From sequence record PQ462667.1: a stretch of 64,000 nucleotides of DNA; one strand, written 5' to 3'. This document shows positions 10,526 through 47,604 of the stretch, in pieces (within the stretch, counting starts at the first letter, position 1; each line of letters opens with the position of its first letter). This stretch comes from Escherichia phage HMD-P3. The notes under the pieces were generated by a model that had not been told where the DNA came from, made no database searches, and saw only the letters and a list, made by a program, of their open reading frames with translations. Made by a program: the position numbers and the translations under genes.

Positions 10526-10608
10526 TATTTGTTTTCCTTTTTGTTTATCAATTTATGAAGTATATTATACGAGAATTTGAAGCGTTTAGCAAATGAATTT
10601 TTTAAAAA

Positions 10609-10963: not shown

Positions 10964-11440
10964 TTACATCTCAGCCATTTCAGCTTCAGTAATAACTGTA
11001 TTACACAATGCATCTACAGCTTCATTACCACTAATACCAGAATGTCCTTTGACCTTAATAAAGGTAGGGTTAGTGTTATGAAAGTTGATATACTGCTGTG
11101 TTAATTTAAATGCTTCCTGCCAAAGTTCTAGATTAAGAGGAACTTCACCATCTGCTTTCTTCCATCCTTTCCTTTGCCAAGAAAACATCCAACTTTCCAT
11201 GCCATTTTTGCAATAAGCAGAGTCAGTATAGATAGCAATTGGTCTATTATCTTTTTTAACAGACCAACGTAGAGCTTCTACAATAGCTGTGAGTTCCATC
11301 TCATTATTTGTAGTTTTAGGATTATAACCAGATTTAGAACCTAAACGATCGTCGTTATCATCATAGACAATAAAACCCCAAGCACCTGGACCTGGATTAG
11401 ACTTACAAGCACCATCTGTGTAAATGTGGAAAACGCTCAC
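10964..11440 (-). CDS. rnhA: ribonuclease HI
   Basis: N-terminal IYTDGACKSNPGPGAWG and downstream TNNEMELTAI...IYTDSAY...GHSGISGNEAVDAL match the RNase H fold motifs. Confidence 0.85.
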   Translation of the reverse strand: MSVFHIYTDGACKSNPGPGAWGFIVYDDNDDRLGSKSGYNPKTTNNEMELTAIVEALRWSVKKDNRPIAIYTDSAYCKNGMESWMFSWQRKGWKKADGEVPLNLELWQEAFKLTQQYINFHNTNPTFIKVKGHSGISGNEAVDALCNTVITEAEMAEM

Positions 11441-11985
11441 TTATTAAGTTCCTCTACTGGTGGGTAATAGTTGGTATAGAAATCTTCTATAACTGCTTCG
11501 CTACCATGAAGTGTTTTTCTTAGTTCATTAGCCTTTATGACCGCACTTTCTAGATCTAAGTAGTCAAAAACACCCCCGTAAATATTTTTACCATTATTAT
11601 CAATTACCTGTACTTGCCATTTCTGTAGTTGTTTGTTCCAGTGTACACCTAGATATCCAGATTTACTCGATGCGGTACAATTTCTATTATTAGACTGGCT
11701 TGTAGCTTCTCTTAGATTTATCCACCTATTATCTGACCTAATTCTATTTTTGTGGTCTATTAAATCAGGTATTGATCCTGTCATGTATAGAAAGGCTAAC
11801 CTATGTGCTAAATAATCTATTTTATCTATCTTAATAGTTATATAGCCATCTTTTCTTAGGTATCCAGCGGGCGAACCTGCTTTTCCTCCCCTACCACGAC
11901 TCACCTTATTAGTAAATATACCAGTATCTGGATCATAGATTAGTATTTCTTTTAATCTTTCTTGGCTAGGTAGCTTTTTACTCAT
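11437..11985 (-). CDS. HNH homing endonuclease with AP2-type DNA-binding domain
   Basis: HNH motif DHKNRIRSDNRWINLREATSQSNNRN; C-terminal GYLGVHWNKQLQKWQVQV...GGVFDYLDLESAVIKANE resembles an AP2 domain; free-standing between rnhA and the next gene. Confidence 0.75.
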   Translation of the reverse strand: MSKKLPSQERLKEILIYDPDTGIFTNKVSRGRGGKAGSPAGYLRKDGYITIKIDKIDYLAHRLAFLYMTGSIPDLIDHKNRIRSDNRWINLREATSQSNNRNCTASSKSGYLGVHWNKQLQKWQVQVIDNNGKNIYGGVFDYLDLESAVIKANELRKTLHGSEAVIEDFYTNYYPPVEELNK

Positions 11986-12361
11986 CTAACCATCCTATGT
12001 CTATACTAAGTAGTGCTTTTATTCCTGTAATACCTGTACCATAAGTATTATATCGAATAGCACTTCTGCTCTTTACTTCAAGTATATTTTCATGCTCTGT
12101 ATTTTCTAGAATTTCTGTAGATATACCTAAATATCCTAATTGATCTTCCTCGTCCCAACCCATATCTTCTAGAAGATTTAGACGTAACTCTACCTTCTCA
12201 TCTCCATTTCCTACAGAGTAGTGGTCTTCTAAAGTCCTGAATTTAGAAGTGATAGAATCTAGTATTAATAATACCTGTTCCTTAGTAATAGTTTCTTTAT
12301 CACCCTGTAAGTAATTGGAGTAATTCAGAAGGGCTTGTTCTAATTCAATTTCTTTACTCAT
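11978..12361 (-). CDS. hypothetical acidic protein (127 aa)
   Basis: ORF overlapping the HNH gene start by 8 nt; promoter with a palindrome upstream. Confidence 0.5.
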   Translation of the reverse strand: MSKEIELEQALLNYSNYLQGDKETITKEQVLLILDSITSKFRTLEDHYSVGNGDEKVELRLNLLEDMGWDEEDQLGYLGISTEILENTEHENILEVKSRSAIRYNTYGTGITGIKALLSIDIGWLDE

Positions 12362-12387
12362 TTTATTATCCTTTTGTACTTATTGAG

Positions 12388-12440
12388 TATATTATATTTG
12401 AAATTGTACTCAATAAGCGAGTACAATTTCAAATATAATA
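12388..12440. promoter_or_regulatory. perfect 17-bp inverted repeat (7-bp spacer) overlapping a promoter
   Basis: tatttgaaattgtactc-aataagc-gagtacaatttcaaata; the right arm runs into a TATAAT element on the minus strand. Confidence 0.5.
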
Positions 12441-12460
12441 GCCCCGAAGGGCTACTTAAG

Positions 12461-13300
12461 TTAAGAGGACATCTTAGCTTTAAGAGCTGGATGTGGATCA
12501 TATCCTTCCAGCTTGAAAGACCAGGCCGCAGTATTATTCTCTAATAAATCATAAAGATCTACAAATTCTGGCATTACTAGAGCTGGCAAAGGACGTGGTT
12601 TACGTTTCAATTGCTCCTCTACTTGCCCTATATGATCACTATAAATATGTGTATCTCCACCACTAAAGATGAGATAACGAGGTTTTAATCCAGTCAGTTT
12701 TGCTAGGATATGTGTTAGTAAAGCATAACTAGCAATATTGAAAGGTAGACCTAGAAAACAGTCTACAGAACGTTGTGTCCATTTAAGATCTAAGTATCCA
12801 TCATTACTTACGTAACATTGGAAACCATAGTGACACGGTGGTAATGCCATCTTATCCAGTTCAGCTACGTTCCATGCAGATACTAGGTGTCTACGACCAT
12901 GTGGATTATTCTTGAGACCCTCAATGAGTTCTAGGATCTGATCTCGTCCACCAAAGTTGCGCCATTGTTTACCATATACTGGCCCCAGATTACCTCTGTC
13001 ATAACCCATGCTTATGGCTTGGTCTTCATAATTTGGAGTCCAGATAGTCCACTGTCCTTCGTCACGCCCAAATGTGAATACTCGTAGATCATGGAGATTT
13101 GTAGATCCAGATAAAAACCATAGGAGTTCTCCAACTACCGATTTCCAAGCTAGACGTTTAGTGGTTACAGCTGGAAATCCTTCACGTAGATCGAACTTAG
13201 CATAGGAATCGAAAATCGAAACTGTGCCTGTCCCCGTACGATCGTTACGTGGTTCACCTAGTAAAATTACATCTGTTAGAATTTTTAAATATTGTTGCAT
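12461..13300 (-). CDS. thyA: thymidylate synthase
   Basis: Catalytic region ALPPCHYGFQCYV plus conserved TGTGT and WxxW motifs; 279 aa. Confidence 0.9.
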   Translation of the reverse strand: MQQYLKILTDVILLGEPRNDRTGTGTVSIFDSYAKFDLREGFPAVTTKRLAWKSVVGELLWFLSGSTNLHDLRVFTFGRDEGQWTIWTPNYEDQAISMGYDRGNLGPVYGKQWRNFGGRDQILELIEGLKNNPHGRRHLVSAWNVAELDKMALPPCHYGFQCYVSNDGYLDLKWTQRSVDCFLGLPFNIASYALLTHILAKLTGLKPRYLIFSGGDTHIYSDHIGQVEEQLKRKPRPLPALVMPEFVDLYDLLENNTAAWSFKLEGYDPHPALKAKMSS

Positions 13301-18541: not shown

Positions 18542-18826
18542 TCCTATAGTGTACTTCGCTAACAGAGGATCAACAAAAAGATCTTGTTTATCAACTTACA
18601 AATATATTATACCAATATATACAGTAAAAAGCAACTACAATTTTAAATAAGCCTATGATATTGCATTTAAATAAAAAATTTGCTTGCTTTTAACGTGAGA
18701 TGTGTGATACTAGATAATCATTTTATATCGCGTGCACGAGTGCGTGATTATACAATTTTTAATAGAGATTGGCAAATAAAATTTTTTGACTCAGATCATG
18801 TTACAGAACTTTATAGTAAAATATTG

Positions 18827-27455: not shown

Positions 27456-28160
27456 ATGGCTGGTTCTCGTAGAAAGAAACACATTCATGAAATCCCGGAT
27501 GAAGTCTTTAAAAAGGTTATAGAGCATCTGGAGAACGGTGGTACTAAGAAAGCAGCATGTGAAATGCTCGGCGTATCGTCCAATCCAACTATGGAAAGGA
27601 TGATTGAAGAATGGCAAGACCGCCAGATCCAAGTTGCCGAAATGAAGAAAAAGAAACGTGGCACACTTATTGAAGGCATCGAGTTAGCTAACGTTATTGA
27701 GCAGTATTTATCTGGTGATTCTTTTGAAGAAATTGCCGATCGTAATTATCGCTCTGTAGCAATGGTTAAATCTGTTCTGGAACGATACGGTGCTCTACTT
27801 CGTTTGAATGATATTGTAGATCCATTGAATCCTCCGATTATTCCTGATGATGCTGTAGCAGAAGAATTTGCAGTTGGTGAACTTGTTTGGGTTCCTGGAT
27901 ACCAGTGTATCGGTGAAATCAAAAAAGCAATGGATAATCCTGTTGGTTGCTACCGTGTATGGCTTCTATCAGAAGGCAAACAACAGAACGTCCATTATAT
28001 GAATTACGAGCTGGCTTCTGTTAAACATCTGGAAAAGTTAGGGGTAGACGTAAAATCTCTGGGGTATAAATGGACTCGTGAAGAAATTATTACGTTGATT
28101 AACGAAGCTGTTAAGGCTGCCCTGAAACTTGATAAAGAAAAAGGAAAACGCCGTGAGTAA
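27456..28160 (+). CDS. DNA-binding protein with N-terminal HTH (possibly T5 D5-like)
   Basis: N-terminal IEHLENGGTKKAACEMLGVSSNPTMERMIEEW resembles an HTH; downstream of the PN25-like promoter. Confidence 0.5.
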   Translation: MAGSRRKKHIHEIPDEVFKKVIEHLENGGTKKAACEMLGVSSNPTMERMIEEWQDRQIQVAEMKKKKRGTLIEGIELANVIEQYLSGDSFEEIADRNYRSVAMVKSVLERYGALLRLNDIVDPLNPPIIPDDAVAEEFAVGELVWVPGYQCIGEIKKAMDNPVGCYRVWLLSEGKQQNVHYMNYELASVKHLEKLGVDVKSLGYKWTREEIITLINEAVKAALKLDKEKGKRRE

Positions 28161-34127: not shown

Positions 34128-35014
34128 GTAGAATAACAGAACTACTTGATCTGAAAGGCATTGAATATAAAGACACAGGTGGGGACATCCTCATCTGTTG
34201 TCTCAATCCAGATCATGACGATAAACACCCAAGTTTGCGTATTGATCCTGAAACAGGTATTATGCACTGCTTGAGTTGTGGCTTCGGTAAAGGTATACCG
34301 AGCATTTACCATTATTTTAATGAGACTCAGTACCGACAGTCCCCAAGGCTATCGCAAGTACGCAAAAAGATTTCAGAGATTAGGAATGGATCAACGAATC
34401 TTGCAATTCCTGAATCTGCTTACCTTTTCGAAGGTGATTTCCGAGGTATAAGTTCTAAGACCTTGAAGAAATATTTTGCTTTCCAACACCAAGCAGACTG
34501 GGAAGGCAGAATTGTATTCCCAATCACAGATGCTGTTGGACGCAATATCCTATTTTTGGGTCGTTCTATAAACAGTTCTGCCCCTCCTAAATACTTAGTA
34601 AAACCAAAACAAGTTTCACCACCGATTTTCCCTGTACGATATAATACTCCAGTTCTTATTCTAGTTGAAGGTATCTTTGATATGCTGAACCTAGAGGATA
34701 ATGGTATAGACTATGCTTCTTGCTGCTTTGGTACACATCAGTTTACTTCGGATAACATTGCAGATAAGTTCAGTCCTTATATTATTGCGGGTGTAAAAGT
34801 TGTTGTTATCTTACTAGATAATGATGCTTCTGGTAATAAGGCTGCACAAGCATTGGCCAAATTAATTCGTACAAAAACGCGTTTAACACCTGTAGTGGCT
34901 AACTTTCTTCTGCCTGAGGGTAAAGATCCTGGTGAGTTAAACAAAGATGAAATTGATATGTTAGCAAAACGTATTGAAATTTTAGTTGCTGAATCGCTTA
35001 AAGATTTGGTATAA
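34124..35014 (+). CDS. DnaG-type DNA primase
   Basis: N-terminal zinc-binding CCLNPDHDDKHPSLRIDPETGIMHCLSCG; Toprim VLILVEG...VVILLDNDASGNKAA. Confidence 0.8.
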   Translation: MSRITELLDLKGIEYKDTGGDILICCLNPDHDDKHPSLRIDPETGIMHCLSCGFGKGIPSIYHYFNETQYRQSPRLSQVRKKISEIRNGSTNLAIPESAYLFEGDFRGISSKTLKKYFAFQHQADWEGRIVFPITDAVGRNILFLGRSINSSAPPKYLVKPKQVSPPIFPVRYNTPVLILVEGIFDMLNLEDNGIDYASCCFGTHQFTSDNIADKFSPYIIAGVKVVVILLDNDASGNKAAQALAKLIRTKTRLTPVVANFLLPEGKDPGELNKDEIDMLAKRIEILVAESLKDLV

Positions 35015-45391: not shown

Positions 45392-45412
45392 TCTACATAT
45401 CAAATAAATAAT

Positions 45413-45450
45413 AAACCCCAATGGACAAAATCCATTGGGGTTTTCTTTTA
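45413..45450. terminator. bidirectional rho-independent terminator between convergent dut and tail-fibre genes
   Basis: Perfect 10-bp stem ccccaatgga/tccattgggg, 5-nt loop, T-run on plus and A-run upstream. Confidence 0.75.
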
Positions 45451-47604
45451 TTGTGATACTAGTTGTACCTTTAATTGCTCAAGCTCTTTCTCCAGATCTT
45501 CAATCCTTTTAATAAGATCTTGCACAACATGCATAGTGTCAAGAAGCATTGGAGTTGTATCTAATTCCTTTTGTTCCTGCTCTACTCCGTCATCATTATA
45601 GAATCTTCTGGTCTTTACATAGAGGGGCTCTATAGTCTCTACTTGCTGCGCAATAACCCCACGTCGGATACGAGATTTTTCATCGTTATTATATATAAAG
45701 GACTGGAATTCTAATCCTTTTAATACCTCGATGGACTTAGTTGCATCTATAGCTTTAATATCATGCTTTAAACGAGAATCAGATATAGCATTTAACTGCA
45801 GAGTATACGTTGCTGCGCCATTGGGCCACCAAGAATAGAAATAAATACTATTATTGTTTGGCTGAATTTTTAAACGTACACCATATTTGTTATCCGCGTC
45901 TCCCGATACGTGCCAGCAAGAATCAGCAAAGGAACCCAAGTCATTATGAATTAATCCAAAATGTGCAGATGTTTTATACCCCGCAGTAGAATACTGGGAA
46001 CCACTCAAAATACTATTAAAATTAAATGTACTGCCTATATTCGCTTCGCTCTGAGAAAAAGTACCTTGTACCCAGCCTGTCTGAGACCACGCCATACCAG
46101 TTACTAGTCTAGCTTCAAAACGATCCGCTACAAAATTCCCAGTATCTACAAGCTGGGCGGAACTCGATTTACCAGTAGATTTATTTTCTATTAGTAGCTC
46201 AGTAGAGTAGTTGCCATCAATAGTAGCTTTAGCACGTAATGTACTTACAGCTTCACTACTAGTACCTACTTTATACTCAGATAGTACACTCCCGCCATAA
46301 ACAGTAGTACTAGCAGAAGGTTTGACAGCATCGCCATTAATGACACTCCACGAGGTATTCGCAGCCACGAATCCACCAGAAGCACGGATTACCCATACAC
46401 CGACAAAGTTTCGTGTAAGGATTTCGTCCTGTGCTGCACCGTAGATAGGGCTTGAGTGTGAGGCGTCAAAATTTAATGTATTATAGCGCCCAGTTAATGC
46501 AATATTTCCTGTACTGGGGATCGCATCCCCATCCCCATTAGGAAAAATCCCATTATTAACAAAGAATGCACCGGCAGCAGCAGACCCAAATACCTGAGCG
46601 TAGCTAGTACTTGAGTAGCTAGGAACAGTACCTGTTATATTAGGCGCAGCTGATTCAAATAGCTGACCATTTGCACTACTATTCCCACCATCACCACGAC
46701 CGTAAAGAGCACGTATTGATCCTTGTTGCACACCGTTCCGATCTGGCACACGGAAAGTAGTTGTGCCATCACCCAAGGAGTATCTGCCACGCTGAAATTT
46801 ATCTGCTAACCAAACTGAATCATCTATGGCCCCAACCATTTGTGCATATGCCCAAAGTTCAGGCCAATCAGCCCTATTAAGGAGCTGTCCGTCAGAAACG
46901 ACTTCGTATGGCTGAATATACGCACGACTATCTCGGAGGTGAAAATCACCAACACCGTAGTTCATAACACCATTCATGGTAGGTCCAACTGTACCAGTGT
47001 TAATCTTATTCTCTACCCAACGCTTAGTAACAGCATCATAATCATTAACGGGATCTCCAGCAAGTGGAGTAGACCCAATAGGGCGTACATTTAGCCACGC
47101 AGCGGCTCGGTCTGCTAAATCTGATAAATTATTTTCAGATAATAGACTTTCGTCTTTTGTTGGCACATTATAACTTTGTCTAAAAGCTTCTTTTGATACT
47201 ACTCCAGTACCTCCTTGTTCTATAGAAAGTGCAGTGGTTAAACCTGTTAAAGATTTAATAGTTGAGTTGGCACCATCCATGTCTATACTAGCAAATCTTG
47301 ACCATGCAGTCCATGAATTGTAAAAAGATCTACTATATATCTCATTACTATTATAAGGTAAGTAAATTTGAGTACAAGAAGTTGATAAACTGCTTGCATT
47401 ATTTTTTAAGACTAGTAATGTACCTGCAGCTGCAACAGGATAGTTAAGAGAAGTAGGAGAGTTAGCATTTCCAGATTGCCAGTACTTTCCATACACCCTT
47501 CCATCAAGTGTATTTAAATCTGTTCCTGCAGTAATTAAACCATATACAGGTAATGCGGCTACATCAGTAGCCTTTAAGTTAATTTTATCAATTCTAAGAG
47601 CCAT
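45448..47604 (-). CDS. tail fibre protein with C-terminal intramolecular chaperone (S74-type autoproteolytic) domain
   Basis: C-terminal SDSRLKHDIKAI...GVIAQQVETIEP...LEKELEQLK is the hallmark of the tail-fibre/endosialidase intramolecular chaperone; the upstream part is Gly/Ser/Thr/Asn-rich. Confidence 0.75.
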   Translation of the reverse strand: MALRIDKINLKATDVAALPVYGLITAGTDLNTLDGRVYGKYWQSGNANSPTSLNYPVAAAGTLLVLKNNASSLSTSCTQIYLPYNSNEIYSRSFYNSWTAWSRFASIDMDGANSTIKSLTGLTTALSIEQGGTGVVSKEAFRQSYNVPTKDESLLSENNLSDLADRAAAWLNVRPIGSTPLAGDPVNDYDAVTKRWVENKINTGTVGPTMNGVMNYGVGDFHLRDSRAYIQPYEVVSDGQLLNRADWPELWAYAQMVGAIDDSVWLADKFQRGRYSLGDGTTTFRVPDRNGVQQGSIRALYGRGDGGNSSANGQLFESAAPNITGTVPSYSSTSYAQVFGSAAAGAFFVNNGIFPNGDGDAIPSTGNIALTGRYNTLNFDASHSSPIYGAAQDEILTRNFVGVWVIRASGGFVAANTSWSVINGDAVKPSASTTVYGGSVLSEYKVGTSSEAVSTLRAKATIDGNYSTELLIENKSTGKSSSAQLVDTGNFVADRFEARLVTGMAWSQTGWVQGTFSQSEANIGSTFNFNSILSGSQYSTAGYKTSAHFGLIHNDLGSFADSCWHVSGDADNKYGVRLKIQPNNNSIYFYSWWPNGAATYTLQLNAISDSRLKHDIKAIDATKSIEVLKGLEFQSFIYNNDEKSRIRRGVIAQQVETIEPLYVKTRRFYNDDGVEQEQKELDTTPMLLDTMHVVQDLIKRIEDLEKELEQLKVQLVSQ
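45451..45795 (-). other. intramolecular chaperone domain (predicted autocleavage near SDSRLK)
   Basis: Domain limits estimated from the last ~115 residues of the fibre ORF. Confidence 0.6.

Follow-up and report, generated by a model that had tools for sequence, protein, structure and literature searches.

An inverted repeat between thyA and the next gene of a T5-like phage

The window analyzed here, 64,000 nucleotides of Escherichia phage HMD-P3 (PQ462667.1), belongs to a Tequintavirus (T5-like phage). The genes around the site are encoded on the minus strand in the order nrdB, frd, thyA, a 127-aa ORF, HNH endonuclease, and rnh. Within 11900–12900, the sequence agrees with Escherichia phage fp01 at 98.8% identity, and matches to this region were found in 142 phage records. 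thyA (thymidylate synthase; 12461..13300, minus strand), found in the ORF list and annotated in fp01, T5, Bf23, and other phages, terminates with TAA (12463..12461). It is separated from the following minus-strand ORF (12361..11978) by a spacer of 99 bp which, read along the minus strand, contains a terminator-type hairpin first and an early promoter second.

A repeat search revealed that this spacer contains an inverted repeat with arms of 22 nt each (12390–12411 and 12419–12440), which are 100% complementary and separated by 7 nt. On the minus strand, the 5′ arm TATTATATTTGAAATTGTACTC (12419..12440) corresponds to approximately −56 to −35 of the promoter, i.e., its A+T-rich upstream region; it is followed by the loop GCTTATT (12412..12418) and by the 3′ arm GAGTACAATTTCAAATATAATA (12390..12411), which contains the promoter spacer and the −10 element. 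Downstream of the 3′ arm, the minus strand reads ATACTCAATAAG, then the Shine–Dalgarno sequence AAAGGA (12369..12374), 7 nt ahead of the ATG at 12361. An earlier note on this DNA had described a perfect palindrome of 17 bp with a 7-bp spacer, located between thyA and the next minus-strand gene. Its location and its spacer are as stated there; its length, in contrast, was underestimated, the 17 bp being only the inner portion of the 22-bp stem.

The 22-bp stem is the longest hairpin in the window and the remaining fp01 genome, where the next perfect ones comprise 13–14 bp. The longest perfect hairpin to arise by chance had 9–13 bp in 64-kb sequences simulated under a Markov-1 model (60 simulations) and, even at 80% A+T, 10–14 bp (40 simulations), compared with the 22 bp observed. 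A chance origin of the palindrome is thereby excluded. Compared with dinucleotide shuffles, the z-score of the RNA fold was −8 for the thyA spacer and −10.5 for the palindrome alone.

Two further repeats were encountered. The first, TACTCAATAAG (12379..12389, minus strand), also found by the repeat search, is an inverted copy of the loop together with the top of the 3′ arm (CTTATTGAGTA, 12407–12417) and perfect over 11 nt. Its pairing would join the loop and 3′-arm top to the start of the transcribed region; it is mutually exclusive with the main stem and weaker than it. This pairing exists in the window and in fp01, is degraded in Lindwurm and Bf23, and is absent from the common class of relatives; an attenuator-like switch based on it was considered and dropped, its conservation being limited to the subgroup of the window. 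The 11-nt repeat may be left over from a template switch that gave rise to the GTAC-type inner stem. The second, at 45398–45458, is an inverted repeat of 28 nt whose core of 13 bp is perfect (AAACCCCAATGGA … TCCATTGGGGTTT); with its A-rich and T-rich flanks, it looks like a bidirectional intrinsic terminator.

The palindrome encloses a predicted early promoter

The −35 element of the promoter, TCGCTT (12415..12420, minus strand), spans the boundary between the 5′ arm and the loop; the −10 element, TATAAT (12391..12396), is found 18 bp away inside the 3′ arm. A spacing of 17 ± 1 bp is what is expected for a T5-type promoter. The discriminator, ATACTC, and the inferred start A at 12384 follow (12384..12390); relatives have ATATT or ATACT at this position. 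The overlap of the palindrome with a TATAAT element, as noted earlier, is thus real, the hexamer being part of the arm (12396..12391).

With the 99-nt spacer as the query, 426 phage records were retrieved; 25 distinct T5-like variants were gathered, 23 of which were aligned. The −35 element reads TTGCTT in 22 of the 25 variants, the exceptions being the window (TCGCTT) and two deletion variants, and the −10 element TATAAT is invariant among the variants aligned. The T-to-C change in the −35 element is unique to the window; it weakens the −35 element and adds one C-G pair to the stem. The window has ATACT as its discriminator, T5 and the majority of relatives ATATT; according to Klimuk et al (2020, PMC7472727), ATATT downstream of the −10 element is characteristic of T5 early promoters. 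In the T5 reference record, a promoter feature (46937–47011) covers the homologous element, and the Bf23 record contains a predicted promoter as well. Signature and annotation together support the claim of the earlier note that the palindrome overlaps an early promoter, and the site is predicted to be a T5-type early promoter served by the host sigma-70.

The minus strand of the window contains five further early promoters (18611, 10569, 8992, 7665, and 6143), which share an A+T-rich upstream block, TTGCTx, a spacer of 17–18 bp, TATAAT, and an ATAYT discriminator. The same signature characterizes the T5 early promoters described by the Bujard laboratory (P-H207, P25, P26, and others); of these, P-H207 is homologous to the promoter at 10569. 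The consensus of the family, AAAAATTNATTTGCTN(8-9)AAATTCTNGTATAATATAYT, covers the five minus-strand sites and a plus-strand site at 35010. The sequence of the 5′ arm resembles the upstream regions of the promoters at 18611, 7665, and 6143, and the similarity of ∼50 bp among early promoters could itself support promoter–promoter recombination. That no other promoter copy carries the palindrome, as had been claimed, was borne out: the five others fold with −6 to −12 kcal/mol, compared with −34.9 kcal/mol for the thyA spacer promoter, and neither in the window nor in the remaining fp01 genome does any other early promoter lie within a long inverted repeat.

Because of the symmetry of the palindrome, a second promoter-like sequence, TTGAAA-18-TACAAT, is present on both strands (12398–12427 on the plus strand and 12432–12403 on the minus strand). 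In T5, the sense copy reads TTGAAA-18-TATAAT, which results in two overlapping promoter candidates 12 bp apart. An antisense or bidirectional promoter was rejected: in the relatives the mirrored −10 element is not accompanied by a conserved −35 element, and there is no sign of an antisense gene.

A terminator-type hairpin directly abuts the palindrome

Upstream of the palindrome, and without any linker to its 5′ arm, lies a GC hairpin with a UUCG tetraloop (TAGCCC-UUCG-GGGCUA; 12439..12454, minus strand; RNA fold, −11.9 kcal/mol). In the letters of the plus strand, it appears as gccccgaagggc at 12441–12452, which is the hairpin that the earlier note had described next to the palindrome. It is followed by UAUUAUAUUU, with 7 U in 10 nt; the T-rich tract TATTATATTT (12431..12440, minus strand), nearly invariant in the 23 variants, acts as the U-tract of the putative terminator and as the outer part of the 5′ arm at once. 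In Bf23, the corresponding hairpin is a predicted rho-independent terminator (ARNold), and the HdH2 record, too, labels the GC hairpin a terminator. The GC stem is retained through co-insertions, with an extra U·G pair in T5 and an extra G-C pair in NR01. A simple consensus terminator scan of the window did not flag the GC hairpin, we think because the extension of the stem consumes part of the T-tract. Based on annotation and fold, the hairpin is of the intrinsic-terminator type and is the predicted end of the nrdB-frd-thyA unit. The adjacent hairpin of the earlier note turned out to be part of a terminator-type element, and the terminator/antiterminator site that was offered there as an alternative to a repressor/activator operator is closer to the evidence.

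The long hairpin might be a second intrinsic terminator in tandem with the GC hairpin, its U-tract being the discriminator (UAUAUUUU) of most relatives. In the Lindwurm record, the 50-bp palindrome is indeed labeled a terminator, UAUUUUA directly follows the stem in most relatives, and stem-loops over the promoter boxes attenuated transcription in T4-like phages (promoter-early stem-loops [PeSLs]; PMC2839356). In the window, however, the sequence after the stem, UACUCAAUAAG, is not rich in U, and the terminator scan flags none at the long palindrome. Moreover, the base of the stem consists of A-U pairs throughout and the stem contains at most two to three G-C pairs, unlike efficient intrinsic terminators, and the U-rich discriminator is common to early promoters that lack a hairpin. 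A second terminator is therefore regarded as very improbable as an explanation of the element, and a canonical one in this window as unlikely. For annotation, we suggest that the site be labeled terminator plus promoter rather than operator, and that the long palindrome not be called a terminator by default.

Pairing is retained while the sequence changes

In the alignment of the 23 variants, the outer 10 bp of the stem, the loop with TTGCTT, and the −10 element are nearly invariant, whereas the inner stem varies and yet pairs. Column pair 33-51 is U-A in 13 variants, G-C in five, G·U in four, and A-U in one; column pair 34-50 is C-G in 12 and U-A in 11; and column pair 36-48 is U·G in 12, C-G in eight, and U-A in two. 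Double compensatory changes occurred at two pairs, along with series such as C-G/U·G/U-A, and a one-base insertion is found in both arms or in neither. Paired cells amounted to 97.6%, compared with 93.6% in shuffles, and the covariation score was 0.192, compared with 0.115 (none of 500 shuffles as high in either case), significances that are overstated by the shuffle controls because the aligned sequences are related. When the register was slid, only 33–53% of the cells were paired.

The fold of the sense strand is more stable than that of the antisense strand in 20 of the 23 variants (mean −17.9 versus −13.9 kcal/mol), because most non-Watson–Crick states are G·U on the sense strand. Against this stand approximately five independent A·C mismatches of the sense strand (in Gostya9, NR01, SHSML-45, Kenya-K36, and the Epseptimavirus group), and counted by sites, the excess of G·U (∼7–9 versus 5 A·C) is not significant. 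A C-to-T bias of the coding strand could also contribute to it. The evidence for a role of the sense-strand RNA drawn from these sequences is, thus, suggestive but not decisive.

In two variants, EC148 and oldekolle, the central 15 bp are deleted, and with them the tip of the hairpin and the entire −35 element; what is left is a perfect palindrome of 34 bp. In both, at locus positions 640–760 of EC148 and 520–560 of oldekolle, the shortened element is identical (TATTATATTTAAATTTCGAAATTTAAATATAATA) and both flanking genes are different. Either the deletion recurred or the element was moved by recombination. In this deletion, as in the T-to-C change of the window, pairing was retained at the expense of the promoter.

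Structural RNA families and metagenomes were also searched. At a permissive E-value, Rfam yielded only sub-threshold matches to miRNA precursors and no family at the gathering score; the matches are generic hairpin noise. A metagenome scan with GGGGCTATTATAYTT, which proved too short a pattern, gave 120 loci, all of them unrelated, and added no variant. A search of IMG/VR for loci based on ThyA identified 17 close T5-like loci, after which identity dropped to 52%, and the hairpin element was absent from the ThyA loci at 52% identity.

The same layout in other genera of Demerecviridae

Other Demerecviridae were reached via homologues of rnh. In three further genera, Sugarlandvirus, Novosibvirus, and Priunavirus, the same two-hairpin layout is found downstream of thyA: a GC hairpin with a tetraloop is followed, without linker, by a long A-U hairpin with the −35 element in the loop and the −10 element in the 3′ arm. 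The arms are 16 nt with one mismatch in Klebsiella phage IME260 (Sugarlandvirus) and 19 nt with one U·G in Proteus phage 1 (Novosibvirus), where a variant −10 element, GATAAT, lies opposite TTATC; Providencia phage PSTCR5 (Priunavirus) has 17 bp, all perfect. In all three, the inner arms differ from those of T5, yet they stay complementary. A covariance model was derived from the aligned T5-like variants; it found one sense-strand copy per genome and scored the elements of the three other genera at 40–41 bits. In the Vibrio relatives VF16 and phi 3, which have no thyA at this position, terminator and promoter are present, but no palindrome. One operon boundary is, thus, marked by a conserved structured element in phages ranging from those of Escherichia and Salmonella to those of Klebsiella, Proteus, and Providencia. 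Because complementarity persists across genera while the sequence changes, the comparison points to selection that acts on pairing and not on sequence, i.e., to a nucleic-acid hairpin and not to a repressor-binding dyad.

The latter had been the reading of the earlier note, which saw in the palindrome the geometry of an operator. A dimeric phage DNA-binding protein would bind there and repress or activate the overlapping early promoter. The perfect dyad symmetry, centered near −31 and spanning both −35 and −10, would suit such a protein, as would the fact that T5 early genes are shut off by poorly defined phage functions. However, it is the pairing that is conserved, while arm sequence and spacing are not: the arms vary with compensation in T5-like phages and are unrelated in the Proteus and Providencia phages, and the spacing of the half-sites is not fixed, as evident from the one-base indel in both arms, loops of 5–18 nt, and the central deletion of 15 bp. 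When conservation of the palindrome in relatives is taken as the measure, as proposed in the earlier note, the pairing stood and the sequence of the inner arms did not. The hairpin is also single-copy per genome. Further copies of the half-site, for which a search had been suggested, exist neither in the window nor in the remaining fp01 genome, which leaves no regulon; allowing three mismatches, matches were obtained only in upstream regions of other early promoters, among them those at 18633 and 15034. The genes on either side vary, which means that no conserved regulator gene adjoins the element, and the protein at 27456–28160, put forward as a helix-turn-helix candidate for binding it, matches a PHROG annotated as helicase, its match to HTH_28 being below the Pfam cut-off. 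Finally, arms of 22 bp are much longer than known dimer half-sites, and a dyad of 51 bp far exceeds a typical dimer operator. On this evidence, an operator is considered highly improbable.

A T5 nick site or replication origin was rejected as well. No repeated boxes occur at the element, and the nick motif of T5, which we take to be of the GCGC type, is missing from it.

The palindrome might alternatively be a by-product of constraints that act on the two arms separately, on the T-tract and UP element in one and on the A+T-rich spacer and −10 element in the other, with template switching homogenizing the resulting quasi-palindrome. Correction of quasi-palindromes is an established mutational process, and intrastrand template switching, by copying one arm onto the other, can create covariation in a palindrome without selection. 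The resemblance of the 5′ arm to upstream regions of other early promoters (the three-mismatch matches at 18633 and 15034) is in line with this notion, as is the self-complementarity of motifs such as AAATTT and TATA. Yet five early promoters under the same constraints do not have such a hairpin, the architecture recurs in at least four genera with unrelated inner arms, including the matched change opposite a variant −10 element (GATAAT/TTATC), and G·U states persist in many lineages, which indicates that homogenization is not fast. We therefore regard a by-product as an unlikely explanation.

The cassette occupies a mosaic gene junction

Terminator-type hairpin, palindrome, and promoter form a cassette of ∼75 bp that is better conserved than the neighboring genes. 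Upstream of it, relatives have thyA type 1, thyA type 2 (54% amino acid identity), or a homing endonuclease gene; downstream, at least five gene sets occur, namely, the 127-aa ORF plus HNH, a 93-aa ORF, an 84-aa ORF, an HslV-like peptidase, or rnh directly. Identity in the alignment breaks exactly at the stop codon and just past the discriminator. The 127-aa ORF of the window (11978..12361, minus strand; phrog_26840, function unassigned) is part of the variable module, and other genes take its place in relatives.

Several observations illustrate the exchange of genes at this junction. While the two thyA alleles share ∼54% identity at the protein level, the intergenic cassette downstream of them shares ∼83% at the DNA level. 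In Gostya9 (locus 694–1292) and Kenya-K36 (774–1473), a homing endonuclease gene replaces thyA and ends at the same GC hairpin. In the window, the phrog_26840 ORF and an HNH_3 endonuclease gene (11437–12361) lie between the promoter and rnh; T5 has neither, and rnh follows directly after a leader of ∼100 nt. Judged from this distribution, the block of phrog_26840 and HNH_3 looks like a mobile insertion module.

Genes that differ on both sides are also what would be expected of a recombination hotspot, and with this, a role of the element at the level of DNA has to be weighed. A cruciform or DNA hairpin would sequester the −10 element in its stem and expose the −35 element in its loop, which would render the promoter dependent on topology, or it would make the site prone to breakage and recombination. 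The A+T-rich palindrome of 51 bp folds well as DNA (−19 kcal/mol on both strands; z approximately −12), the promoter elements are positioned exactly in loop and stem, and the exact removal of the hairpin tip in EC148 and oldekolle resembles the processing of a DNA hairpin. On the other hand, G·T and A·C mismatches would harm a cruciform equally, which leaves the bias of the sense strand unexplained, and T5 virion DNA is linear and nicked, so that stable negative supercoiling is uncertain. Altogether, a DNA structure appears possible but rather unlikely. A more far-reaching version would be a promoter gated by structure, which its own DNA fold, brought about by replication, transcription-driven supercoiling, or the help of a phage DNA-binding protein, switches off, thereby silencing rnh and the variable genes and contributing to early shut-off throughout the Demerecviridae. 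We consider this proposal improbable; if it were true, the same fold would also make the junction a recombination hotspot.

A hairpin that would act in read-through RNA

The reading we prefer, and to which we assign about an even chance of being correct, is that of a compact terminator–promoter cassette between two early units, in which a selected hairpin acts in read-through RNA. The UUCG hairpin and its U-rich tract would end most nrdB-frd-thyA transcripts, and the sigma-70 promoter would start a new transcript covering the downstream variable genes and rnh. The palindrome would pair the U-tract and upstream region with the promoter spacer and −10 element, leaving the −35 element in the loop. 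A transcript would carry both arms only if it had passed the GC hairpin; since transcripts from the embedded promoter lack the hairpin, a role of the RNA would be limited to read-through molecules. In these, a helix of 20–23 bp, nearly all A-U, would form directly against the GC hairpin.

Most likely, as we infer, the element acts at the level of RNA, in RNase III–type processing or in insulation. Double-stranded RNA that is largely regular over approximately two turns (≥20 bp) is the type of target that E. coli RNase III cuts. The stem comprises 22–23 bp, all perfect, in the window and 20–23 bp in the T5-like variants; the stems of the other genera, with 16–19 bp, are short for RNase III. The host enzyme would cut the A-U helix and thereby split the upstream from the downstream message. 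The upstream message would keep the UUCG hairpin as protection, and the downstream message would receive a 5′ end close to the start of the promoter's own transcript. Perhaps the helix also slows or attenuates read-through. The literature on T5 that was searched (RNase III, palindromes and hairpins, transcription starts, and RNA-seq) contained nothing on this site, and no publication connecting RNase III processing with T5 turned up.

Comparison with known systems

Hairpins processed by RNase III are well known between phage genes, for example, the early and late R sites of T7 and the retroregulation of lambda at sib/tI. Like these, the thyA spacer would encode a long intercistronic RNA helix near a terminator, and as in lambda sib, the full helix would form only in transcripts that pass the terminator. 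In contrast, the R sites of T7 have internal loops and are not made of promoter elements, and the RNase III helix of lambda sib is an extended terminator, whereas here it is a separate hairpin abutting one.

Among systems acting at the DNA level, a promoter is reportedly controlled by cruciform extrusion (work attributed to Horwitz and Loeb, 1988), and attenuation of a cruciform by HlyU is said to operate in Vibrio. Common to them and to the thyA element is an inverted repeat that spans the core promoter, so that extrusion would inactivate the latter. For these cruciforms, extrusion in supercoiled DNA is reported as demonstrated; for the thyA element, in contrast, the G·U bias of the sense strand favors RNA.

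We found no published description of the thyA-spacer element itself; of the systems that have been described, the PeSL of T4-like phages comes nearest to it (Arbiol et al, 2010, PMC2839356; Comeau et al, 2014, PMC4122927). PeSL stem-loops can be located upstream of the −35 box or overlap the −35 or −10 box (PMC2839356). Like a PeSL, the thyA-spacer element is a compact intergenic cassette that unites a strong predicted early promoter of the sigma-70 type, together with its A+T-rich upstream sequence, and a stable stem-loop of the terminator/attenuator kind. PeSLs also mark junctions at which small flanking genes are swapped between relatives, which applies to the thyA cassette as well. They differ from it in being a dispersed family of repeats, the copies of which can recombine with one another, whereas the hairpin of the thyA spacer is single-copy and only the promoter consensus is repeated. 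Moreover, a PeSL consists of one hairpin, whereas there are two here, the GC tetraloop hairpin and an A-U hairpin of 16–23 bp around the whole core promoter, and PeSLs belong to T4-like phages and not to Demerecviridae.

The switching of T5 between its classes of early genes is poorly understood, and the thyA-spacer element may bear on it. It offers a concrete site at which the processing of RNA, or insulation, between early operons of T5 can be studied, and it carries the concept of cassettes that combine promoter and stem-loop at mosaic junctions over from T4-like myoviruses to the Demerecviridae.
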